Part shown: positions 1 through 8,899 of the stretch, one piece after another
Numbering within the stretch: the stretch's first letter is position 1
How the letters are laid out: each line of letters opens with the position of its first letter
IMG/VR virus record: IMGVR_UViG_2600255005_000007
Coordinates: 1 to 8,899 of that record
DNA from: a virus
Taxonomy: Duplodnaviria > Heunggongvirae > Uroviricota > Caudoviricetes
DNA length: 8,899 nt
Strand: one strand, 5' to 3'
Position numbers and translations under genes: made by a program
Notes under the pieces: model-generated
What the model was told of the DNA's origin: nothing
The model's database searches: none
Seen by the model: the letters and a program-made list of their open reading frames with translations, nothing else

Positions 1-480
1 GTGATAAAGCGTGTTTTGCAGGCTGCGTTCGATGTCATCAACGCTGCGCCGCTGGCTGGCAGAGAGCGAGGCAATAAACGCTTCGGCTTTTTCCGGCGAC
101 TGCTGGCGATAAAGATTCGCCAGCCCGCGCACGGCGTTAGTGTTGCTACTGTCCATACGCAGCGTCTGCTGGTAATAGCGTTCAGCGGCGGGGTAATCTT
201 TGCGCGCCATCGCCACATCGCCCAGCCCCAGCACCGCATAGCTGTCGGCGTTATCGACATTGCGCGCCTGCTGGAACAGGCGTTCTGCCCGGTCGGGATT
301 ATTGGCTTTCAGCGCAGCATCGCCCTGCTGGATCGCCAGCCAGTAGCGATTCACCTTCAGCAGACTGTTCCATTTGTCGTTGTTGCTGCTGTGCGGATCC
401 AGCGCGAGGGCTTTTTCCAGATTCGCCACCGCATTAGCACGATCGCCATTCTGAGAATACGCCTGCCCCAGCGCCCCCGG
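1..480 (-). pseudogene. bcsC: Cellulose synthase operon protein C (BcsC) TPR-region fragment; 5' part of the gene missing (replaced by inserted DNA at about 480), 3' part continues beyond the window start
   Basis: Reverse-complement translation of 1-477 reads GALGQAYSQNGDRANAVANLEKALALDPHSSNNDKWNSLLKVNRYWLAIQQGDAALKANNPDRAERLFQQARNVDNADSYAVLGLGDVAMARKDYPAAERYYQQTLRMDSSNTNAVRGLANLYRQQSPEKAEAFIASLSASQRRSVDDIERSLQNTLYH, which I recognise as the TPR region of enterobacterial BcsC. Similarity stops at 478-483 and an in-frame stop follows at 496-498. Absent from the ORF track because the frame runs off the window edge. Confidence 0.7.
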
Positions 481-2088
481 AACGCGGCGAAAACATCAGA
501 GACGAATGCAGGTAACAGCGCGAAAGCGGCAGCTTCTTCAAAAACAGCCGCACAAAATGCAGCAACAGCGGCAGAACATTCAGAGACAAATGCCCGTGCG
601 TCAGAGGAAGCCTCCGCAGACAGTGAAGAGGCTTCCCGCCGTAATGCAGAGTCAGCCGCTGAAAATGCCGGAATCGCCACCACAAAAGCGCGGGAGGCCG
701 CAGCAGACGCAACAAAGGCCGGGCAGAAAAAGGATGAGGCTCTGTCGGCAGCGACACGAGCAGAAAAGGCGGCAGACCGCGCAGAAGCCGCAGCGGAAGT
801 GACTGCAGAGCCCTATGCGAATATAGTGCCGCCGCTGCCTGATGTATGGATACCGTTTAACGATACACTGGATATGATTACGGGGTTTTCGCCATCATAT
901 AAAAAGATTGTTATTGGTGACGATGAAATAACAATGCCAGGCGACAAGATTGTTAAGTTTAAACGTGCTTCAACAGCAACGTATATTAATAAGTCCGGCC
1001 AACTCAAGCTTGCTGAAGTTGATGAACCGCGATTTGAGCGCGATGGCTTATTGATTGAAGGACAGAGGACAAATTATCTGAGGAACTCAAATAAACCAGA
1101 CTCATGGACTGTTCATTCCGCACTGAATAAAACATTTGGCACTGATAAACAGGGGTTCAATTATGCCACGGTGACACCCACGGAAAGTATAGTGGGAACA
1201 ACAGGTGGCTATACTGTGCATGGTGTGGTTGCAGCAGACAGATTCCCGCTGGCAAGTGGTGAATGTTTCACTTTTTCGTGCCGGGTTAAAGGCGCTAAAG
1301 CACGATGCAGGTTAAGAGTTTCAGTTATTATTGGTGGAACAGATACATTCTCTGCTGACTCTTATCTTGATCTGGATACCCGGATCGCAACAGTAAGCGG
1401 TAATACATCCCTTATAACAGCCAAAGCTGAACAACAGGGCGAGTGGACCTACTATGAGGCCACTTATACAGCTAATACGGACATTGATACCGTTAACTGT
1501 GCTTTTTATATGACAAATAAAATAAGTAATGAGCCATTCTATGATGACTCAACATTAACCATGACGACGCCGCAAATTGAACTGGGCAATACGGCATCGT
1601 CATTTATTGTAACTACAATGCCAACAACACGCGCAAGTGATGTGGTTACTATCCCATCGCAGAATAACCTGTCAACACGGCCTTTTACGGTATTGTGCGA
1701 AGTAAGCAGGAACTGGAGTACACCGCCCAATGTTGCGCCAAGGATATTTGATGTTGGAGGGCACAGTATTGATGATAATTATTTATCGCTGGGGTTTGTT
1801 TCAACAGGAAAGATAAGCGCCAACGTAGGAATGGTTCAGCCACAAATTTCCTCAGATGGAGAAAGGTTCATTGTGGGTGTGAGAGCTAAATCTGATTTAT
1901 CAGTAAATGCAATATGCAGTGGTAATTATACAACAAACCTTAATGGTAAAATATTTGGAGTTACAGCAACATCGTACCGGTTTGGTGGGCAGACCGCAGC
2001 AGGAACGCGTCATTTGTTTGGACACATCAGAAATTTCAGAGTCTGGTTTAAAGAATTAAATGACAGGCAAATCAAGGAGGCAGTATGA
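481..2088 (+). CDS. Phage side tail fibre protein, shaft repeats plus C-terminal receptor-binding region; 5'-truncated and fused in frame to antisense bcsC sequence (ORF 1..2088)
   Basis: From about 490 the + frame gives Ser/Ala/Glu-rich SETNA-type repeats (SETNAGNSAKAAASSKTAAQNAATAAEHSETNARASEEASADSEEASRRNAESAAEN...) typical of lambdoid side-tail-fibre shafts, then about 430 aa ending in FGHIRNFRVWFKELNDRQIKE (2017-2085), which resembles the C-terminal motif of concanavalin-A/LamG-like lectin domains. No N-terminal tail-attachment domain is present. The first 160 codons of the ORF are antisense bcsC and not fibre sequence. Confidence 0.7.
   Translation, partial: NAAKTSETNAGNSAKAAASSKTAAQNAATAAEHSETNARASEEASADSEEASRRNAESAAENAGIATTKAREAAADATKAGQKKDEALSAATRAEKAADRAEAAAEVTAEPYANIVPPLPDVWIPFNDTLDMITGFSPSYKKIVIGDDEITMPGDKIVKFKRASTATYINKSGQLKLAEVDEPRFERDGLLIEGQRTNYLRNSNKPDSWTVHSALNKTFGTDKQGFNYATVTPTESIVGTTGGYTVHGVVAADRFPLASGECFTFSCRVKGAKARCRLRVSVIIGGTDTFSADSYLDLDTRIATVSGNTSLITAKAEQQGEWTYYEATYTANTDIDTVNCAFYMTNKISNEPFYDDSTLTMTTPQIELGNTASSFIVTTMPTTRASDVVTIPSQNNLSTRPFTVLCEVSRNWSTPPNVAPRIFDVGGHSIDDNYLSLGFVSTGKISANVGMVQPQISSDGERFIVGVRAKSDLSVNAICSGNYTTNLNGKIFGVTATSYRFGGQTAAGTRHLFGHIRNFRVWFKELNDRQIKEAV
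2074..2080 (+). promoter_or_regulatory. Shine-Dalgarno AAGGAGG for ORF 2085..2363
   Basis: AAGGAGG 4 nt upstream of ATG 2085; the ATG overlaps the fibre stop (ATGA 2085-2088), suggesting translational coupling. Confidence 0.55.
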
Positions 2089-2700: not shown

Positions 2701-3033
2701 GAAACCCGGGAGAAAGCGCGGATACAGAAACCGGGTGCCTGTCACATCTTCCGGCACTCGATGGCAACGCAGATGCTGGACAACGGCGCAGACACGCGGC
2801 ACATCCAGGCGATCCTCGGCCATGAGAAGCTGGAGACGACGCAGATCTACACGCGGGTAGCCATCGGTCACTTACAGGAAGTTCACGCGCTGACGCACCC
2901 GGAAGAGCAGGACGAGACGTGGACGGATCGGCACGTTGCGGATGCGGTGGCAGAGCCGCAGACGCGCCGGGAGCGTAATCACGCAGAGATGGAGCGGGCG
3001 CTGGTCAGCAGGAAACGCCGCCGGAGACGCTGA
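2701..3033 (+). pseudogene. Tyrosine recombinase (phage integrase / XerCD-like) C-terminal fragment, 5'-truncated
   Basis: Translation ETREKARIQKPGACHIFRHSMATQMLDNGADTRHIQAILGHEKLETTQIYTRVAIGHLQEVHALTHP matches the C-terminal catalytic box of tyrosine recombinases (H-x-x-R-H, LGH, TTQIYT with the catalytic Tyr). No N-terminal or core-binding domain lies upstream, where fibre-associated ORFs sit instead. The reported ORF 2614..3033 begins inside the previous gene in another frame. Confidence 0.55.
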
Positions 3034-3993
3034 TGCAGGCCGGAAGCGTGATCATCGCCGGACTGCCTGAAAAGTTAGCGGGCGATCCCTGTAAGGCCGT
3101 GGGGTGAGGTGCAGGGCAGACAACCGCCTTCCCTGGCGGTTGACTGCCCCCTGCCAGCGGAGTGCGCGGGGGTAAATGCCGTTCGCCCCGTGGAGGCAGG
3201 CGTGTCCCATGCGGCCACGGCGCACGGGGCAAACGTCATTCAACATAATGCGGGGGATTATGCGCACTCTCGCCGGGTGGCAACGGCGGCGAACCCGACC
3301 CGCTGTGCGCGGCTCGTGTTCGCACAATCCGCATTATGTCTTGCGCCCCCGCGTTCAGCCCCTTAACCAGTGCCACGCGCAGCAGCTCGCTGGCGCTCGC
3401 TCCTGCCGTCTCAGCGGCGGTGTCCTTCCTCAGCGCCGCAGTCGCCGCCATCCCTGGCGGCTCCGGTGCCGTTCTGCGGCGGCGTCATCGTGTGGCAGTC
3501 AGTCAGAAAAGGGTGTCGGCCTGGCGGCCTCCGCTTGTAAGGGCTTTATGCCCGCCCGGCGTCGTCTGGCTGCGGCGGCTCGTGCCGCGCAAAAAGGCCG
3601 CGCGTCACTCGTTCCCGCCTCGCCAGCTTCCGCTGCCCGCCCCGGTCCGGTGTGGTCATGCAAAGGCCAGCTCCGGTCAGGCAGCGGTGCCACAGAGCGC
3701 CGTTCCGTCGCTTGCGGACTCTCTGCCGCCCGCACCCGCAGACCCCGCGCCGTGGCCCCGCCATGCCGCCGGAGGCGGCCTGGCGGCCCCCCGTCACGGG
3801 TTGCCGGAAACGGACTTAGTGGAAAGCGGAATGACAGGTTCGTGGCGGTGGTGATATGGTGAGCGGGCGTGAAAACGCGCGTCGGGAAAGCCGGGTTAAC
3901 GTGCTGTTAAATAATTAAAAGGTGATAGCCGTGAAGCCAGAAACGGCGCGGGCGGTAGCGTGTTAAAAAGTATGACCCGCACCGGATCGTCCC

Positions 3994-4401
3994 GATGACC
4001 CGATAGGGCTGAGAGGCGGATTAAACTTATACCAATACGCGCCTAATCCAGTAAACTGGATCGATCCTTTGGGTTTGAAATGTGGGCAACCTGAATGGAC
4101 AAATCATGGATACAAACATTTTCCTCCAAAAAACAAATCATGGAAGGATATAATTAAATCAACAAAATCAGGCCCGGCAAAATATTCTCCAGATATTGAT
4201 ATTAAAACGTTGGAATACGATGTTTTTAATACAGGCACACCTGTTACGAACGGTAAACCATGGAAAGTAAAAGATATGGGAAAAGTTATTGGGGCCAGTG
4301 AGGGTAAAGAATCTCAATGGGTTCGAGTTGAACTTAGCGGTGGGACAATACATGGACATCCTATATCAATCGATGAATTCCGAAGGCTAACAACATCATG
4401 A
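3994..4401 (+). CDS. Orphan Rhs C-terminal toxin module 1 (core-end [27 protein letters not shown] at 3997-4077 plus about 105 aa toxin domain of unassigned family); no start codon, no upstream core
   Basis: Frame opens after TGA 3973-3975. Conserved Rhs core-end peptide, then [15 protein letters not shown]...[19 protein letters not shown]. First in-frame ATG lies deep inside the domain; the ORF track start at 4069 is a TTG. Confidence 0.65.
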
Positions 4402-4691
4402 ACATTGATTTCTTAGGAAAAAAAGGGAATATAGTTTTTAATGACTTCTCCCTGAAACAAAGCATCCCTCTTAATGAACAGCGAGATGAACTTAAGGAAG
4501 ATATGCTCCAGGTTGAATATCCTGGTGGGTATCTTTTGGATGTTGGGTGGCGACCATCTTTTGATATAAATGGGAAGTTTTATATTTGTTTAATAAAGGA
4601 TTTTGATTGGGATTATCCCATTTATAATGGTTCTGCGAAAGATATTGTCTCATTATTATTTGAAATTAACCAAGCTATAAATAAACTTTAA
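4398..4691 (+). CDS. Putative immunity protein for Rhs-CT 1 (97 aa)
   Basis: ATG overlaps toxin stop (ATGA 4398-4401); AT-rich small ORF directly downstream of a polymorphic toxin domain; followed by a terminator hairpin. Confidence 0.6.
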
Positions 4692-4707
4692 ATAAACTTT
4701 AAAAAAA

Positions 4708-4746
4708 CTGGGAAGAAAATTAAATCTTCCCGGCTTTTTATTATTT
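4708..4746. terminator. Bidirectional intrinsic terminator between convergent immunity gene 1 and SymE-like gene 1
   Basis: Stem CTGGGAAGA (4708-4716) / TCTTCCCGG (4725-4733) with 8 nt loop, followed by CTTTTTATTATTT on + strand and preceded by AAAAAAA (a T-tract on the minus strand). Confidence 0.55.
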
Positions 4747-5006
4747 AACTCTCGTTCAGCACACTAAACATCCCGTTCCGCATCCCCTTAACCGCCTGTT
4801 TGACCTGGTAAAGTTCCCTGCGCAGTTCCTGTACTTCGTTGTTATCCGCTAGCAGGATCAGGCAACCTTCCGAGATCTTCACGGTAACGCCCGTGCCGAT
4901 CTCAAATCCCGCTTCTCTCAGCCATTTGGCGCTGATTTTGATCACCGGCGTGTCGCTTCGGTTGGGCAGATAGCCCACGGTACAGTGGCGCTGTGTTTTG
5001 GAAATG
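4719..5006. repeat. Direct repeat copy A (about 288 bp), carrying part of the terminator and the SymE-like ORF
   Basis: 4719-5006 aligns with 7311-7599 at roughly 97 percent identity by eye (a handful of substitutions and one extra T). Similarity ends abruptly after ...GTTTTGGAAATG. Confidence 0.8.
4745..4978 (-). CDS. SymE-family (type I toxin SymE-like, AbrB/SpoVT-fold) protein, probably 5'-truncated
   Basis: Translation GYLPNRSDTPVIKISAKWLREAGFEIGTGVTVKISEGCLILLADNNEVQELRRELYQVKQ aligns with the conserved core of E. coli SymE (TV.Y...P.I...WL..AGF..GT.V.VK..EGC..L) as I recall it. Starts at GTG with no SD; frame is open upstream to a stop at 5063-5065 with no ATG. Confidence 0.6.
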   Translation of the reverse strand: MGYLPNRSDTPVIKISAKWLREAGFEIGTGVTVKISEGCLILLADNNEVQELRRELYQVKQAVKGMRNGMFSVLNES

Positions 5007-5171
5007 ATATTTTTGTATTTAACCTGCTGATTAGATAGTAAAATAAACTTCGTGCAGATAGCTTACTTTGTCAGGGTGTGGCGGTAGCGTATGAACTATG
5101 ACGTGATGGTTTTAGTGATTTATAGACGAAACTGACAGTACGATCCGGACTTCGATTAGATTGCGCGATTT

Positions 5172-5621
5172 GACCCGATAGGGCTGGCGGGGGGGCTGAA
5201 TCTTTATCAGTATGCGCCGAATCCGTTAAACTGGATCGATCCGCTTGGATTAAGTTGCTCTAGTGATGCAAAAAAATTATCTGGTAATTTAGGATCAGCA
5301 CCAAGTAGTCACTATCGACCACATCATATGGTTATGTCTAATTCCAGCGATGTGCGTATGCGGTGGTTACGTAGAAGGATGGATCGGTTAGGTATAGATA
5401 TAAACGATTCCAAAAATGGTGTATGGCTACCCAAAAACTCTGATTATCGGTTACCGGGGACAAAAGCTACTGCTCATGGTGGTGAAGGTGTACATGGAAA
5501 TGCATATAAACAACATGTGTGGGATACGTTGAAAAATGCAAGAACAAAAGCTGATTTTGAAGCAGGGCTTGCGCAACTTAAAGTAGAGCTAAGTACTGGC
5601 AAAACGTTTCCTGTCCAATAA
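5172..5621 (+). CDS. Orphan Rhs C-terminal toxin module 2 (core-end [27 protein letters not shown] at 5172-5252 plus HNH/AHH-type nuclease-like domain); no start codon at 5' end
   Basis: Frame opens after TAG 5157-5159. Domain contains PHHMV (HH at 5322-5327), NGVWLP (5415-5432) and [14 protein letters not shown], matching the His-His...Asn...His layout of AHH-family HNH-fold toxins. The ORF track start at 5328 is the Met inside the HHM motif. Confidence 0.65.
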
Positions 5622-5625
5622 GGAG
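5620..5625 (+). promoter_or_regulatory. Shine-Dalgarno AAGGAG for immunity gene 2
   Basis: AAGGAG, 9 nt spacer, ATG 5635; the SD overlaps the toxin stop TAA 5619-5621. Confidence 0.5.
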
Positions 5626-5634
5626 TATGATCAC

Positions 5635-6252
5635 ATGAAAGATTTTCTGAAAAGTTTATATGAAGATTACAATGGAAAGTATTCGGAACTGATAGAACAG
5701 ATGAACGGAGAAAAGGCTACTTGTAGATGGGGGTATGGTGTTATGCCTGCCTTCTCTATAGAACCTTATGCATCCGAGCTTTTAGGTCATAAACCGGGAC
5801 GAATGTTGAAAAATAACTCAATCGCAGGAGTAAATAAACAATGCTATTATGTTGATGAACAAAACAGGATAATAGAAGGAATTACATACGCCAGCCATCG
5901 TAAGAAAGATAATGAATGGATTGTGTATAGAAATTTTTATATTTACCAAGAAAATACCATTCTTGGGCTTTTGTATAGTAGTACATTTGAAGATAGTAAA
6001 AACACAGGATTGAATAAGATTGTATTTATAAGCATTGATAATAAATTAATAAATAATAAGTATACTTTCATGTATGATGGGGAGTATTCTGAGGTAGATT
6101 ATATTTATAATAAAGATAAAATAATAAAAATAGACCAAAGGGTATGGTCTTCGTTTTATTTTGAACGCACTTATCTGATAGAGTCAAATGATCCATTGAT
6201 TATTAATGAATACTTAGAAAATAGTGGGAACATCAGGATCTACCCTACTTAA
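5635..6252 (+). CDS. Putative immunity protein for Rhs-CT 2 (205 aa)
   Basis: Complete ORF with good SD immediately after the toxin domain; visibly AT-rich relative to flanking DNA. Confidence 0.6.
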   Translation: MKDFLKSLYEDYNGKYSELIEQMNGEKATCRWGYGVMPAFSIEPYASELLGHKPGRMLKNNSIAGVNKQCYYVDEQNRIIEGITYASHRKKDNEWIVYRNFYIYQENTILGLLYSSTFEDSKNTGLNKIVFISIDNKLINNKYTFMYDGEYSEVDYIYNKDKIIKIDQRVWSSFYFERTYLIESNDPLIINEYLENSGNIRIYPT

Positions 6253-6357
6253 TTTATCAAAGTAAGAGACTAATATATGGACTATGATGCGGCTGTTTCA
6301 GGGATATGCGATTGAAGCCAGTAGTATGATCCTGCGATGGGGTAGATTCACCGTCCT

Positions 6358-6801
6358 GATCCGATAGGGCTGGCGGGGGGAATAAACCTCTATGCTTATG
6401 CGCCGAATCCAGTAAACCACATTGATCCTCTTGGGCTATCTTGTGGAAAGGTTGGTAACGTTGAATATCGTAATTTTGAGCGTTCTCCGGGAATGTTTTC
6501 TCGGTTATTAAAGAATAAACGTGACTTTGATTATGTTGCCAGATATAACATCTCAAGATATAAAGCTACATTGAGAAAAAATAATCCGGATGGTTTTGGT
6601 AATATTAGCCATTATTTCGATGGTGTAGATGCAAAAGGAAATAAAGTCGTTATTGAGGTGGCGAATACAGGGCATAAATCTTCAAGCGGTGGTTTTGAGC
6701 CTCCACATATTAAAATTCAAATAAAAGACGCTGATAACAAAGTGATACATAATGCCAAATATTTTTTGGAAGATGATATATATAGAATTACGGGCAAATA
6801 A
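6358..6801 (+). CDS. Orphan Rhs C-terminal toxin module 3 (core-end [27 protein letters not shown] at 6358-6438 plus about 120 aa toxin domain of unassigned family); no start codon at 5' end
   Basis: Frame opens after TAG 6343-6345. Domain SCGKVGNVEYRNFERSPGMFSRLLKNKRDFDYVARYNISRYKATLRKNNPDGFGNISHYFDGVDAKGNKVVIEVANTGHKSSSGGFEPPHIKIQIKDADNKVIHNAKYFLEDDIYRITGK. The ORF track start at 6493 is an internal Met. Confidence 0.65.
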   Translation, partial: DPIGLAGGINLYAYAPNPVNHIDPLGLSCGKVGNVEYRNFERSPGMFSRLLKNKRDFDYVARYNISRYKATLRKNNPDGFGNISHYFDGVDAKGNKVVIEVANTGHKSSSGGFEPPHIKIQIKDADNKVIHNAKYFLEDDIYRITGK

Positions 6802-7260
6802 ATGAAAAATATTAGAGAGTTAAATAATGCAGAATTCTCCGGGCTTATTAACAATGCTTTACCATTCTTACATATTAATCCTATAAGCGAAGCTGTTTGT
6901 ATTCATGCAGAAGCTTATAAAAGTGGTATTGATGTTAACTATATCCGTTGCAACGTTGACTGGGAGGGGTTTTCTTCTTTAACTGAAGCGTTGGAAACGT
7001 TATACCATGAATTATTTAAAGATGGTATTCCATCAGGCGAATTGTTGTTTTTTTACCCGTTTGATAGAACAAAGAAAGGGAATTATGGTGTTATACTGGA
7101 ATCATCTCAGCTATTAGATTTCTTAATAAAAGAGCATTTGAAGATTTATCCTGAATGTTTTAATGTAGAAATGTGTAGCTTCGGTTTTTATTTTATAGAT
7201 CACGAAATATTTTACGGCATGGAACATCCTGATTTTTTATATAGTTTCTGTGTAAGATAA
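6802..7260 (+). CDS. Putative immunity protein for Rhs-CT 3 (152 aa)
   Basis: ATG immediately follows the toxin stop (TAA-ATG at 6799-6804); AT-rich; followed by a terminator hairpin. Confidence 0.6.
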   Translation: MKNIRELNNAEFSGLINNALPFLHINPISEAVCIHAEAYKSGIDVNYIRCNVDWEGFSSLTEALETLYHELFKDGIPSGELLFFYPFDRTKKGNYGVILESSQLLDFLIKEHLKIYPECFNVEMCSFGFYFIDHEIFYGMEHPDFLYSFCVR

Positions 7261-7296
7261 TTAATAAAGTGAGGAGTATATTTCTCTTTCTTAATC

Positions 7297-7335
7297 GCCG
7301 GGAAAGGTAGATTAAATCTTCCCGGCTTTTTTATT
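7297..7335 (+). terminator. Intrinsic terminator after immunity gene 3
   Basis: Perfect 8 bp stem GCCGGGAA (7297-7304) / TTCCCGGC (7319-7326) followed by TTTTTTATT. No T-tract in the minus-strand direction. Confidence 0.55.
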
Positions 7336-7599
7336 ATTTAACGTTCGTTCAGCACACTAAACATCCCGTCCCGCATCCCCTTAACAGCCTGTTTAACCTG
7401 ATAAAGTTCCCTGCGCAGTTCCTGTACTTCGTTGTTATCCGCTAGCAGGATCAGGCAACCTTCCGAGATCTTCACGGTAACGCCCGTGCCGATCTCAAAT
7501 CCCGCTTCTCTCAGCCATTTGGCGCTGATTTTGATCACCGGCGTGTCGCTGCGGTTGGGCAGATAGCCCACGGTACAGTGGCGCTGTGTTTTGGAAATG
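7311..7599. repeat. Direct repeat copy B (about 289 bp), partner of 4719-5006
   Basis: See copy A. The right end abuts GC-rich primase-like sequence at 7599/7600. Confidence 0.8.
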
Positions 7600-7619
7600 G
7601 TGGGCCGCACTGCTGGCAC
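7338..7619 (-). CDS. SymE-family toxin-like protein, copy 2; the N-terminal 10 codons come from unrelated sequence beyond the repeat boundary
   Basis: Near-identical to copy 1 over the shared part (ISKTQRHCTVGYLPNRSDTPVIKISAKWLREAGFEIGTGVTVKISEGCLILLADNNEVQELRRELYQVKQAVKGMRDGMFSVLNER). The ORF start at 7619 is a GTG lying antisense inside the primase-like region, with no SD. Confidence 0.55.
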   Translation of the reverse strand: MPAVRPTISKTQRHCTVGYLPNRSDTPVIKISAKWLREAGFEIGTGVTVKISEGCLILLADNNEVQELRRELYQVKQAVKGMRDGMFSVLNER

Positions 7620-8899
7620 ACGGCGTCAGGCAGGTACTGATCGCCTACGACAACGATCCGGCGGGCAATGAGGCGGCGGTGAAACTGGCTTCTTCCTTAG
7701 CCGCTTCCGGGATCGCCACGTTCCGCGTACTGTTCCCGGCGGGCATGGATGCGAACGGTTATCTGTGCAGTGTGGCAGAGCCGGAACAGGCGTTCAGTCT
7801 GTTGCTGGATGGCGCGGTGCCCATGAGTGACCTGGCCGATGCGGAGAGTATCGCGCCGCAGGCCAGCGCGGAGCCTGCACACCTGACTTCATTAGCTGCC
7901 GGGGTTGCGGTCTTACCCGCAGCCGCCGCGCCTGCACCGGGCGTCAGCGTGGAAACCCTGGCCGATGGCGAACTGATGGTAGCCTTACCCGGCGAACGCT
8001 GGACTATCAGGGGCGTAAGCCGCAAACCGAACGTCGCCGCGATGAAGGTCAATGCGCAGGTGCTGGACACCAACAGCGGCGTGGTGTTCGCTGATGCGGT
8101 GGATATGATGAGCGCCCGCAGCCGTTCCGGTTATGCGCGGGCCGCAGCGGCAGAGCTTGGGCTTGCCGAAGGCGACCTGCGCCGTTCGCTGGGTAAGGTG
8201 CTGCTGGCGCTGGAGCACTGGCAGGCGGCACCGGAGCCGGAGAGCGTCGCCCCGGAGATGACGCCGGAAGATCGGGAGGCGGCGCTGGATCTGCTGCGCG
8301 ACGAGTGTCTTGCCGGGCGCATCGCTTCTGATATGGCGGCGTGTGGCGTGGTGGGTGAGTCCACCAACCTGACGGCGGCGTATCTGGCGGCGGTGTCACG
8401 CAAACTGGAGCGCCCGCTTGCCGTTCTCATCCAGTCGTCGAGCGCGGCGGGTAAGTCCAGCTTAATGGATGCGGTGCTCAATCTGATCCCGCCAGAGGAA
8501 CGGCTGCAATACAGCGCCATGACCGGGCAGAGCCTGTTCTACCTCGGCGAAACCAACCTGCAACACAAGATCCTCGCCATCGCAGAAGAAGAAGGTGTGC
8601 GCCAGGCGGCGTATGCGCTGAAACTGTTGCAATCAGACGGGGAACTGACCATCGCCAGTACGGGCAAGGACGACGCCAGCGGCAACCTGGTCACCAAACA
8701 GTACACGGTGAAAGGCCCGGTGATGCTGATGCTGACCACCACGGCGATCGACGTCGATGAAGAACTGTTAAACCGCTGCCTGGTGCTGACGGTGAACGAG
8801 TCGCGGGAGCAGACGGAGGCCGAACTGCTCTTTAACAATTTATCAGACAATCTGTGTGGGCACTCGAAGATACGGATTCTTAACGTCCTCGGACGATAA
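7600..8899 (+). CDS. Toprim-domain primase-like protein with downstream P-loop-like region, N-terminally truncated at the repeat junction (integrative/conjugative-element type replication or mobilisation protein)
   Basis: VLIAYDNDPAGNEAAVKL resembles the Toprim DxD motif region; a Walker-A-like SSSAAGKSSL follows after an Ala/Pro-rich linker. GC-rich coding sequence with good third-position GC bias. The conserved Toprim Glu region expected upstream is missing. The reported start at 7586 is a GTG inside the SymE repeat. Confidence 0.55.

Follow-up and report, generated by a model that had tools for sequence, protein, structure and literature searches.

Do the two near-identical, symE-bearing direct repeats in this array of Rhs toxin tips encode working toxins, or do they provide passive homology for the exchange of tips? 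Rhs and CDI toxins diversify by swapping their C-terminal tips, and the arrival and displacement of these tips have so far been a model on paper. For new tips, Jackson et al. 2009 (PMC2935791) postulated arrival through a circular intermediate, with old tips being pushed downstream, and pointed out that an integrase accompanying Rhs was not known. The 8,899-nt stretch of DNA from strain TW11588 analysed here (the window) supplies the second named homology arm of such an array, a symE remnant with a terminator, and natural variants differ exactly there. This arm is tied to a backbone that encodes a primase, a recombinase, a repressor and a toxin-antitoxin pair and that is also found on a small plasmid, and the tip-exchange question becomes experimentally approachable.

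Anatomy of the array

The window contains three rhs core stubs (at 3996, 5171 and 6357), each in frame with a CT ORF that is followed by an immunity-sized ORF. This repeated DPxGL-(18)-DPxGL core end with a variable CT and a small immunity ORF identifies the region as an Rhs orphan array. A full-length rhs gene is not present in the window; L006, a sister strain, has a PAAR-Rhs gene of 1,550 aa one element upstream. The features are as follows.

2706..3033, plus strand: 3' end (~109 codons) of a XerC-like tyrosine recombinase gene of the preceding element (Pfam Phage_integrase, 53.4 bits)
3034..3995, plus strand: GC-rich (~70%) spacer ending directly at the rhs stub (base composition)
3996..4076, plus strand: 81-nt rhs core stub 1 with spacer-type upstream context (repeat search, translation, stub-context comparison)
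4077..4691, plus strand: module 1, CT1 to 4401 in frame with stub 1, imm1 4398-4691 (ORFs, translation)
4702..4738, both strands: bidirectional intrinsic terminator between imm1 and copy A (terminator-like matches 4708-4733 and 4731-4710)
4718..5006, minus strand: repeat copy A, a solo symE remnant (repeat search, MAFFT, Pfam)
5007..5170, plus strand: remainder of the linker, AT-rich sequence X (~80 nt) followed by decayed rhs core (~84 nt) (translation)
5171..6252, plus strand: module 2, stub 2 5171-5251, CT2 to 5621, imm2 5635-6252 (repeats, ORFs, Pfam, translation)
6273..7260, plus strand: module 3, decayed core 6273-6356, stub 3 6357-6437, CT3 to 6801, imm3 6802-7260 (repeats, ORFs, translation)
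7311..7602, minus strand: repeat copy B, symE cut at codon 10/11 (MAFFT, Pfam, BLAST against sister strains)
7603..8821, plus strand: internal fragment of a DnaG-type primase gene, nt 866-2085 of 2,952 nt (Toprim domains, BLAST)

Fragments of one backbone unit thus flank the array in the window (2706-3033 and 7603-8821). The xerC fragment is cut at 2705/2706 by prophage tail-fibre DNA, the left flank of the window being prophage and bcsC DNA, and from there on the sequence matches L006 from 5905 onward with 99.98% identity. The primase fragment is 100% identical to L006 12298-13517; the remainder of the primase gene is found, together with xerC and the spacer, in inverted orientation upstream of the window in this genome. 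The spacer is apparently non-coding, as judged by substitutions without 3-periodicity and the lack of a GC3 bias, with xerC as control, and by its longest ORF, which had no match in Pfam, NCBIfam or PHROG. In every element the spacer comes after xerC, and it meets the stub at the same junction in all those examined.

CT1 and imm1 matched no family in Pfam or NCBIfam profile searches; CT2 matched the AHH nuclease domain (Pfam, 35.9 bits). The terminator is built from an A-run, a GGGAAG...CTTCCC hairpin and a T-run, and the hairpin is kept behind 28 different immunity-gene contexts. The decayed core of the linker contains conserved in-frame stops (RMNYDVMVLVIYRRN*QYDPDFD*IARF), and no similarity was found between the linker remainder (5007..5170) and the GC-rich spacer.

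The repeats are nearly identical and recur in independent assemblies

A repeat search of the window revealed a 272-nt direct repeat (4735-5006 and 7328-7599, 97% identity, spacing 2593), and alignment by MAFFT widened the shared stretch to 4718-5006 and 7311-7599/7600. Over these ~290 nt, copies A and B differ by seven substitutions and one 1-nt indel; BLAST gave 97.2% identity over 289 nt. All three methods bear out the ~97% identity stated in an earlier note on this DNA, and a direct repeat so long and so alike by far exceeds what chance would give in 8.9 kb. The two symE copies are on the minus strand, and each converges with its immunity gene: imm1 ends at 4691, facing the symE stop codon of copy A at 4745-4747, and imm3 ends at 7260, facing that of copy B at 7338-7340, in agreement with the placement proposed before. 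The repeats enclose core stub-CT2 (AHH nuclease)-imm2-core stub-CT3-imm3, and ORFs, in-frame translation and profile search all agree with the CT2-imm2-CT3-imm3 content given in that note.

The note had named an assembly duplication as the finding that would undo its reading, and a duplicated or collapsed repeat in the TW11588 assembly has points in its favour. Relative to its sister strains, TW11588 has four unusual junctions (481, 2706, 7602 and 8821), and the symE'-primase junction of copy B was present in 0 of 5,426 complete E. coli genomes. Nevertheless, the same two copies in the same arrangement, with their seven distinguishing substitutions and the enclosed block, recur at 99-100% identity elsewhere in Escherichia ruysiae and relatives, in eight or more assemblies; the eight come from different projects and comprise five draft genomes, two metagenome scaffolds and, from E. 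ruysiae CABVLQ01, a 4.65-Mb contig. Further, the junction of copy A is contiguous in three complete E. coli genomes (R32_14_1F, 06-00048 and AR_0077; window 4703-5253, ~92% identity). An artefact is refuted for the repeat itself, and as an explanation of the locus it is extremely improbable.

Both copies are truncated relatives of a symE/symR pair

The SymE-like toxin ORF that had been assigned to each copy was upheld as to family and had to be corrected as to integrity. Both ORFs exceed the curated cutoff of Pfam SymE_toxin (PF08845, 29 bits), copy A with 43.9 bits (E 2.5e-11) and copy B with 55.1 bits (E 7.9e-15), which settles the other reservation of the earlier note, that a SymE profile match might be missing. 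However, both are 5'-truncated and lack symR.

Copy A comprises 86 codons up to a junction, J, at 5006/5007. Its longest conventional ORF (4745-4978, 77 aa) starts with GTG; ahead of this internal GTG at Val20 there is no ATG, GTG or TTG, and neither a Shine-Dalgarno/ribosome-binding site nor a promoter-like site was found in the sequence upstream. In copy B, homology to copy A stops at 7599-7601 and homology to the full-length sister-strain gene at 7602, and the first six codons come from antisense primase DNA. In the sister strains L006-L012 and L017, the corresponding gene has its full 97 codons and begins with MAEHDITPEVTISKTQRH. A 1,496-bp deletion joins copy B to the primase, by which the symE start, symR, an Xre-type HTH gene and the primase 5' end are gone. 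Copy B would thus be the backbone's own symE, decapitated in TW11588 by this 1.5-kb deletion. Three features common to all full-length copies are missing from both: the initial 10 codons, the ribosome-binding site AGGAG and the gene for the SymR-like antisense RNA. Judged by their sequence, both appear to be remnants.

The full-length relatives have a distinct conserved N-terminus (MAEHDITPEV) and an ATG preceded by AGGAG. Against the NCBIfam equivalog NF010128 they scored 47.3 and 49.5 bits (cutoff 132), and one shared 46% identity over 68 residues with K-12 SymE, indicating a distinct clade and not an orthologue of K-12 SymE. A SymR-like antisense RNA overlaps their start codon: in L006 (10825-10899), the whole Rfam symR model was matched with 48.7 bits (cutoff 61; E 3e-8). 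Across 17 distinct sequences, compensatory changes occur in nine pairs of its second hairpin; pairing holds in 97.7% of cells, compared to 27-53% with the partners slid, and the observed number of double changes was reached by 0 of 500 shuffles. The intact unit is predicted to be a type I toxin-antitoxin pair of the SymE/SymR type. In the window, Rfam searches up to an E-value of 1 gave no symR match, the region being deleted or absent in both copies, and neither copy has a translatable toxin ORF with a ribosome-binding site or a cis-antisense RNA over the start, as a type I system does.

Could both repeats nonetheless be live type I toxin genes, each adding an addiction function to its neighbouring module? 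Both ORFs lie above the Pfam threshold, PGAP names the 77-86-aa versions SymE family toxins, and the solo copies have an intact frame in 11 of 12 distinct sequences with rare amino-acid changes (pN/pS 0.18), which could reflect a retained function. However, alleles are common to solo and full-length contexts, so that conversion can explain the intact frame and the pN/pS value, and the constraint may be borrowed. Since copy A also has no start before Val20 and copy B starts in antisense primase, with the losses common to both, we consider live toxins unlikely. For annotators, this means that "SymE family toxin" calls of 66-86 aa within rhs arrays probably mark remnants in many cases.

A symE/symR pair and terminator usually follow Rhs cassettes

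Downstream of Rhs tip/immunity cassettes, the usual neighbour is the pair of symE and symR together with the bidirectional terminator. Among species-representative genomes of Enterobacterales, a convergent Rhs core end was found within 3 kb (median 833 nt) of 50 of 75 SymE loci and 83 of 111 copies, which supports the suggestion that a symE-like gene usually neighbours Rhs modules downstream. In the papers that could be searched, SymE near CDI, Rhs or Hcp genes was mentioned merely in passing; the claim that SymE is new as a component of Rhs orphan arrays is thus roughly right, yet RefSeq annotation already labels symE genes of this kind.

Based on these findings, we propose that symE and its terminator would form the downstream boundary of each CT/immunity cassette in an Enterobacterales-wide clade of T6SS-linked rhs loci, and the 81-nt rhs core stub the conserved upstream boundary. 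Probably, the truncated symE with its terminator is such a conserved cassette boundary and the window copies are passive homology and not working toxins; neither would act as a toxin gene, their role being that of ~290 bp of direct homology.

Strains differ at the seams between modules

After an identical imm1, strains carry solo symE followed by AHH/CT3, by Deam_C or by ART-HYD1, or a full-length symE directly; the latter shares 262 nt with the copy A type at 99.6% identity. That strains differ in content between the imm1-linked copy and the next full copy fits recombination at the repeats. The lineages compared around imm1 are 91-100% identical and are not parent-product pairs. The same linker was found ahead of different CTs and behind different immunity genes. 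Array remnants retain the symE 3' end without the 5' end and the copy at the end of the array is full length, as the displacement model with a circular intermediate predicts (Jackson et al. 2009, PMC2935791). What the data show directly is the anatomy, its conservation, the truncations and the variation between strains, the last falling precisely on these seams. Recombination events at the repeats were not observed directly; the differing modules after identical imm1 lend indirect support to the earlier proposal that such recombination reshuffles the array, and RecA-type recombination as the agent, as well as the direction of events, is what we infer.

The layout of copy A (symE 3' part, junction J, 80 nt, decayed core, stub) suggests a possible route. 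Through a single crossover in symE, a circle made up of X-stub-CT2-imm2-stub-CT3-imm3-symE' could integrate, and copy A would then end at the closure joint of the circle; alternatively, copy A could have been brought in together with module 1. A crossover in the opposite direction would delete the block or release it as a circle.

Instead of by homologous exchange, the block could have been moved by site-specific recombination, with the repeats or junction J as sites of a XerC-like recombinase. A gene for such an enzyme lies within the same conserved unit, and the J-type linker has one fixed junction across genera, J being identical in E. coli, E. ruysiae, Entomohabitans, Kosakonia and an Erwinia-labelled MAG. 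Moreover, the deletion in copy B begins merely 1-3 nt from J, so that two independent truncations lie no more than 3 nt apart; this coincidence counts against the main reading and may indicate a specific breakage site rather than random illegitimate events. However, the symE remnants of other arrays are cut at many positions (around codons 20, 28, 33, 40 and 50), J and the spacer/stub junction share no resemblance by eye, and stub crossovers map to differing positions in different strains, which is typical of homologous exchange. A 15-nt sequence, GACCCGATAGGGCTG, is common to all stub types. Descent of a single linker lineage accounts for the fixed J: by its sequence, copy A appears to be an old solo linker with one fixed junction that travels between genomes of several genera. 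Site-specific movement is thus quite improbable, and homologous exchange at symE and stub remains our preferred reading.

The full symE opens a conserved backbone

The full symE opens a conserved backbone, which the earlier note had missed, consisting of the Xre repressor, the DnaG-type primase with a P-loop domain, the XerC-like recombinase (full gene 525.7 bits with NCBIfam NF002331, XerC subfamily), the GC-rich spacer and the 81-nt rhs stub. The Xre-primase-XerC block adjoins Rhs ends at the yafV/T6SS and ybfA-ybgA loci of Escherichia and was also found in Citrobacter, Erwinia, Buttiauxella, Scandinavium, Salmonella and Ralstonia. A recombinase, a replication gene and a regulator in one conserved block at different loci and in different hosts characterise it as a probable mobile element; a pair of empty and occupied sites (parent and product) was not found for it. 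Lonsdalea populi harbours the backbone on a circular plasmid of 11,289 bp, along with two SymE genes and two stub-CT-immunity cassettes. A circular record of 8,758 bp from Shigella corresponds to one period of a tandem array in a chromosome and could be an artefact of the assembler. In a sister lineage, a VENN stub replaces the rhs stub, and the element has CdiA tips and, in place of SymE, DinJ/RelE.

The backbone may be the long-postulated vehicle for Rhs tip exchange. Tentatively, and with slightly less than even confidence, we suggest that symE/symR is the addiction module and left boundary of replicative-integrative "tip shuttles" that displace rhs/cdiA tips, solo linkers being their decayed footprints. 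Such shuttles, present as plasmid-like circles, would integrate at the 3' end of rhs or cdiA, where the resident delivery gene would be fused to their toxin tip and the former tip displaced downstream; they would thus be the physical agents of C-terminal displacement. No published description of such a small replicative-integrative family was found.

Relation to known systems

The window ORFs belong to the same Pfam family as K-12 SymE (symE b4347, symR b4625, near hsdS and mcrB), whose protein is now annotated as nucleoid-associated. K-12 SymR is likewise antisense over the start codon, as in the full-length relatives here. Unlike the K-12 pair, the window copies lack start codon, ribosome-binding site and symR. 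The full-length relatives differ from K-12 symE, which lies in a restriction-gene region, by sitting behind Rhs cassettes, by being the second gene behind an Xre-type repressor and by lacking a LexA box: no CTG-N10-CAG was found within 180 nt upstream of a full-length relative, and the best match to the LexA consensus was 12/20, inside the HTH gene, compared to 15/20 for the K-12 control.

As in known Rhs orphan arrays (PMC2935791; Koskiniemi et al. 2014, PMC3967940), modules of core fragment, CT and immunity gene stand in series, and the DPxGL-(18)-DPxGL stub is the upstream homology of the displacement model. Unlike in these arrays, the downstream boundary here is also a conserved, recognisable gene (symE with terminator), and truncated symE copies form inter-module linkers.

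Neither attC-like sites nor features of an integron integrase were found for the backbone, the best NCBIfam match being the XerC subfamily. In the recombinase-associated immunity-gene arrays of Bacteroidales and in integrons, a recombinase is likewise linked to arrays. In bee-gut bacteria, Rhs-associated integrases, for which a role in capture or transfer was suggested (Steele et al. 2017, PMC5727410), link a tyrosine recombinase to toxin-fragment/immunity arrays, as here. Compared to all three, the backbone here adds a DnaG-type primase, the Xre repressor and a toxin-antitoxin module, and has a target-gene stub, tandem arrays downstream of rhs and a small circular plasmid.

The antisense strand of both copies gave sub-threshold matches to Rfam isrA (32-34 bits, cutoff 51) and Ssr1 (260-273 bits, cutoff 820), which appear to reflect common symE-region sequence. 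The published island sRNAs IsrA and Ssr1 may be re-read as parts of the symE region, to which a conserved SymR-like RNA is added. For Salmonella Typhimurium, IsrA was reported as a cis-antisense RNA of STM0294.1n, the two being inversely expressed (PMC2330248). In Shigella flexneri, Ssr1 was mapped to the interval that separates yafV from the Rhs-family gene SF0268 (PMC4782007); neither paper ties its RNA to SymE or to Rhs cassette structure. The mapped Ssr1 RNA is ~150 nt long and starts 130 nt inside the predicted region of 654 nt; it is apparently located upstream of symE and not over it, and its position is that of the array's last symE in E. ruysiae.

Two symE-containing direct repeats enclose Rhs modules 2 and 3

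A repeat search of the window revealed a 272-nt direct repeat (4735-5006 and 7328-7599, 97% identical, spacing 2593). Alignment with MAFFT widened the common stretch to 4718-5006 (copy A) and 7311-7599/7600 (copy B), which differ by seven substitutions and one 1-nt indel; by BLAST, the two copies were 97.2% identical over 289 nt. Each copy adjoins, in convergent orientation, an immunity-sized ORF, copy A that of module 1 (imm1) and copy B that of module 3 (imm3), and each contains an ORF that scores above the cutoff of Pfam SymE_toxin (29 bits):

4398-4691, ORF of imm1
4745-4978, minus strand, copy A ORF, 77 aa, SymE_toxin 43.9 bits
6802-7260, ORF of imm3
7338-7619, minus strand, copy B ORF, 93 aa, SymE_toxin 55.1 bits

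Judged by the profile match, membership of both ORFs in the SymE family is settled. Between the copies lie two modules, each made up of a stub of the Rhs core end (81 nt, DPIGL...DPLGL) and of ORFs for a C-terminal toxin and an immunity protein; the toxin tip of module 2 (CT2) is an AHH nuclease. The earlier note had thus described the arrangement of repeats, convergent immunity genes, SymE ORFs and enclosed modules accurately, and its family assignment was right. A PDB sequence search with the SymE profile gave chance matches only, and SymE had no match in PADLOC or PHROGs. Rhs orphan arrays are an established phenomenon, as is tip displacement (PMC2935791; PMC3967940), and the finding in the window is a moderately interesting variant of this known array type.

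Exact-protein look-ups showed that the window is 100% identical to part of AEMF01000001.1 (GCA_000208585.2), which a strain table (PMC12446263) assigns to Escherichia ruysiae strain TW11588 from soil. Both symE copies, together with the substitutions that distinguish them, recur at 99-100% identity in a 4.65-Mb contig of a sister E. ruysiae isolate (L006, from CABVLQ01), two metagenome scaffolds and five draft assemblies. The repeats are therefore not an assembly duplication, a possibility that the earlier note had raised.

Full-length Rhs-linked symE and a SymR-like RNA

SymE/SymR is an established pair in K-12. In L006, the whole Rfam symR model was matched at 10825-10899 on the strand opposite the symE start, overlapping the start codon, with 48.7 bits (E 3e-8), which falls under the gathering score of 61. 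The geometry, antisense over the symE start codon, is the same as that of K-12 symR/symE. The region was compared in 17 distinct versions from Escherichia, Erwinia, Buttiauxella, Scandinavium, Yokenella, Winslowiella and Enterobacter. RNAalifold predicted two hairpins from these sequences, and nine pairs of hairpin 2 had compensatory double changes. In a pair count, 97.7% of cells were paired vs 27-53% with the partners slid, and 45 double-change cells were found vs 15 in shuffles, none of 500 shuffles reaching the observed value. A putative symR promoter, TTGGAA-16-TAATAT, was read from the sequence and ends 7 nt before the predicted 5' end. The coding sequence of full-length symE is under purifying selection (pN/pS 0.09). 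The full-length Rhs-linked symE appears to be half of a SymE/SymR-type pair. The predicted SymR-like RNA, with its strong covariation, goes with full-length Rhs-linked symE in several genera and, being under the gathering score, would be missed by automatic annotation.

The full-length relatives differ from K-12 SymE, to which they are 46% identical over 68 residues, and miss the NCBIfam equivalog cutoff by far. Unlike K-12 symE, which served as control, they have no LexA box and are the second gene behind an Xre repressor. They are a distinct SymE clade.

Both symE copies in the window are truncated

L006 and seven other assemblies have the counterpart of copy B as a complete gene of 97 codons, which starts MAEHDITPEVTISKTQRH and has AGGAG 8 nt before the ATG. 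The window is without 1,496 bp present in L006 (10802-12297), which take in the first ten symE codons with a 79-nt leader, the gene of an Xre-type HTH protein and 865 nt from the 5' end of the primase gene; codons 1-6 of the 93-aa copy B ORF are antisense primase sequence. Since this chimeric ORF had no match in the exact-protein look-up and the junction of symE with primase was found in none of 5,426 E. coli genomes, copy B is truncated in TW11588 alone, or else seems so through an error in that assembly. In copy A, the frame stays open for 20 codons past the right edge of the repeat (5006/5007, termed J) with no ATG, GTG or TTG, and the first conventional start is a GTG at Val20 that is not preceded by a Shine-Dalgarno sequence. 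No promoter-like site was found upstream of the copy A ORF, and the window gave no symR match. Of the claim that each repeat carries a SymE-like toxin ORF, the family match stands, but both ORFs are 5'-truncated and most likely dead remnants.

Solo copies, that is symE remnants acting as linkers between Rhs modules, may nevertheless keep a function, as their frame is open in 11 of 12 distinct sequences and pN/pS is 0.18. However, the same alleles occur in solo and full-length contexts, so that conversion can account for both the open frame and the low pN/pS. We also considered that Xre and SymE form a type II pair, loss of the former forcing truncation of symE; this was weakened by several full-length symE genes without an adjacent HTH gene. 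The TW11588 deletion begins 1-3 nt from J, and both positions lie between -35 and -10 of the putative symR promoter; the closeness of the two is an unexplained coincidence.

symE is the usual downstream neighbour of Rhs cassettes

One genome per species was surveyed, which gave 75 loci with relatives of the window SymE. At 50 of the 75 loci (83 of 111 copies), the 3 kb beyond the symE stop contained an Rhs core-end motif on the other strand, at a median distance of 833 nt, which corresponds to one toxin tip plus one immunity gene. This bears out the suggestion that a symE-like gene is the usual downstream neighbour of Rhs modules. The genera with Rhs-linked SymE include Escherichia, Citrobacter, Kosakonia, Enterobacter, Yokenella, Yersinia, Erwinia, Winslowiella, Rahnella, Buttiauxella, Scandinavium and Atlantibacter; SymE loci lacking Rhs are of another clade, which has the N-terminus MATTPTQT... 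and varied contexts. The copy A region had matches in 233 of 5,426 complete E. coli genomes, at a median of 3 and a maximum of 9 places per genome. Between each immunity gene and symE stands a hairpin with an A-run on one side and a T-run on the other, which is kept behind 28 different immunity contexts. Just before this terminator, an 11-nt unit, AAATAAACTTT, at 4680-4705 overlaps the imm1 stop codon; it is a small variable-number repeat with two copies in the window and 1, 3 or 4 in other strains.

RefSeq annotation already labels Rhs-linked symE genes. In the open-access literature, SymE beside polymorphic-toxin genes is mentioned only in passing: close to hcp orphans of Pantoea (PMC3942780), within a cluster of CDI orphans of Proteus and E. 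coli (PMC11278526) and in the hecA and T6SS regions of Dickeya (PMC8386352). A description of symE/symR as a structural part of Rhs cassettes was not found in the open-access literature.

Two small RNAs have been described earlier: IsrA of Salmonella, antisense to STM0294.1n (PMC2330248), and Ssr1 of Shigella, between an Rhs-family gene and yafV (PMC4782007). Their Rfam models gave sub-threshold matches on the antisense strand of both window copies, and IsrA and Ssr1 probably belong to the same symE region. Ssr1 was rejected as an antisense regulator of symE, since the Rfam model spans all of the intergenic region predicted between Rhs and yafV, and the RNA as mapped apparently lies upstream of symE. 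The family seed is this predicted Shigella region with a frameshifted symE and not a defined RNA. The Ssr1 model (654 nt) matches 4575-5008 and 7057-7601 on the plus strand, ending exactly at the right edge of the repeats.

Arrays differ at symE and at the stub

The solo linker unit in the window consists of copy A followed, beyond J, by 80 AT-rich nt, 84 nt of decayed Rhs core and the 81-nt stub that comes next. The J junction recurs with 88-100% identity in E. coli, E. ruysiae, Entomohabitans, Kosakonia and an Erwinia-labelled MAG, where linkers of this type stand behind different immunity genes and ahead of different toxin tips. The 164 nt right of copy A had no similarity to the tail of the GC-rich spacer of the backbone, and a simple internal deletion of the backbone was rejected as their origin. 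The decayed core precedes stubs 2 and 3 (5087-5170 and 6273-6356) with in-frame stops at the same positions (…RRN*QYDPDFD*IARF), which are kept between E. coli and E. ruysiae linkers; orphan tips would thus be untranslatable from upstream until a crossover inside the 81-nt stub.

In other arrays symE remnants are cut elsewhere, but all retain the 3' end and have lost the 5' end, whereas the last symE of the array is full length. The circular-intermediate displacement model predicts such a pattern if the donor fragment reaches into symE (Jackson et al. 2009, PMC2935791). An identical imm1 protein was found in several array contexts:

Contexts of the identical imm1 protein
Relatives of the window: solo symE, AHH and CT3 modules, full symE
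L095 and L100: solo symE, Deam_C module, full symE
L102: solo symE, ART-HYD1 module
L094: full-length symE directly, then HTH and primase, with nothing between

Over the common 262 nt, symE of L094 is 99.6% identical to copy A vs 97.3% to copy B. Given these contexts of imm1, natural strains either have the block between the repeats, have something else in its place or lack it, and the differences start and end in symE and the stub. Copies A and B differ mainly toward the immunity gene and not at all in the 48 nt that precede J, a pattern compatible with a crossover near J. The proposal that recombination at the repeats reshuffles the array is well supported by the comparative evidence, the variants being not parent-product pairs. 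The agent would be RecA-type recombination; as to direction, either a circle may have been inserted through symE or copy A may have hitch-hiked with module 1.

A primase-recombinase backbone accompanies the cassettes

Escherichia loci run from an Rhs tip and its immunity gene through symE and Xre HTH (both reverse) to primase, XerC-subfamily recombinase, spacer, stub and next tip, and the backbone unit is often found in tandem repeats. Its components downstream of the HTH gene are:

Primase, 983 aa, DnaG zinc ribbon, Toprim domain and P-loop region
XerC-subfamily recombinase, 366 aa, NF002331 525.7 bits
Spacer, ~960 bp (window 3034-3995), 70% GC, apparently non-coding
rhs stub, 81 nt, after the spacer

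The window keeps just the xerC tail with the spacer (2706-3995) and an internal primase fragment (7603-8821). The junction of spacer and stub was identical in all elements examined. A protein-coding spacer was rejected (no family match, no codon periodicity of substitutions, no GC3 bias); the spacer might instead contain an origin, arm sites of the recombinase or an RNA. Between compared element copies the spacer is ~90-92% identical.

The backbone also borders on Rhs ends in Citrobacter, Erwinia, Buttiauxella, Scandinavium and Ralstonia, and a Salmonella contig has it with SymE. On the megaplasmid of Ralstonia solanacearum Po82, one copy without SymE is found between an rhs gene and an Rhs core fragment. 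A circular plasmid of Lonsdalea populi (NZ_CP072857.1, 11,289 bp) has xerC, primase, HTH and SymE twice, as well as RelE/DinJ; nearly all of it is accounted for by RelE/DinJ, one complete and one incomplete copy of the backbone, and two cassettes, an Endonuclea_NS_2 tip with Imm-NTF2 and a WHH/colicin-DNase tip, each behind an 81-nt stub in a spacer-type context. A circular record of 8.8 kb from Shigella corresponds to a single period of a tandem array on the chromosome and may be a true circle or an assembler artefact. CdiA toxin tips have the VENN motif as a hallmark. An Enterobacter plasmid (NZ_CP074171.1) has a sister backbone, with a 54% identical primase, in tandem 8.4-kb units without SymE, which contain DinJ/RelE and two ORFs starting at VENN motifs, i.e. 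CdiA-like tips.

Taken together, these occurrences of the backbone suggest a family of elements that would bring toxin tips to rhs and cdiA genes and of which a toxin-antitoxin module would be a standard accessory. Since neither an attachment-site pair nor a parent-product pair was found among the elements compared, we put this forward as a hypothesis. Rhs-linked integrases have been noted in bee-gut bacteria, with no mechanism given (PMC5727410). No description of a primase-XerC/recombinase backbone as carrier of Rhs or cdiA-CT tips was found in the open-access literature, and a term search in Poole et al. 2011 gave no match. What makes the finding valuable is that it points to a SymE/SymR boundary conserved at Rhs cassettes and to a candidate vehicle by which tips would be exchanged.

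Possible rearrangements in TW11588

TW11588 departs from all the relatives that carry both symE copies at four places, which are either real rearrangements or assembly errors:

Breakpoints of TW11588 in the window
~481: bcsC fragment joined to tail-fibre gene
2705/2706: tail-fibre DNA joined to the middle of the xerC gene
7602/7603: symE joined to the middle of the primase gene
8821/8822: end of primase homology

The primase gene is broken twice in this strain, and its 3' part is found with xerC and spacer in inverted orientation a few kb upstream of the window, next to bcsC' (L013, 1-2971). Within the window, 13-481 (minus strand) is a fragment resembling bcsC (~94% to the E. coli gene), which runs into a tail-fibre gene of a prophage without its N-terminus (479-2088); two small phage ORFs come next. 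The DNA of 1-2705 abuts the middle of xerC at 2705/2706, and sister strains have none of it at this locus.
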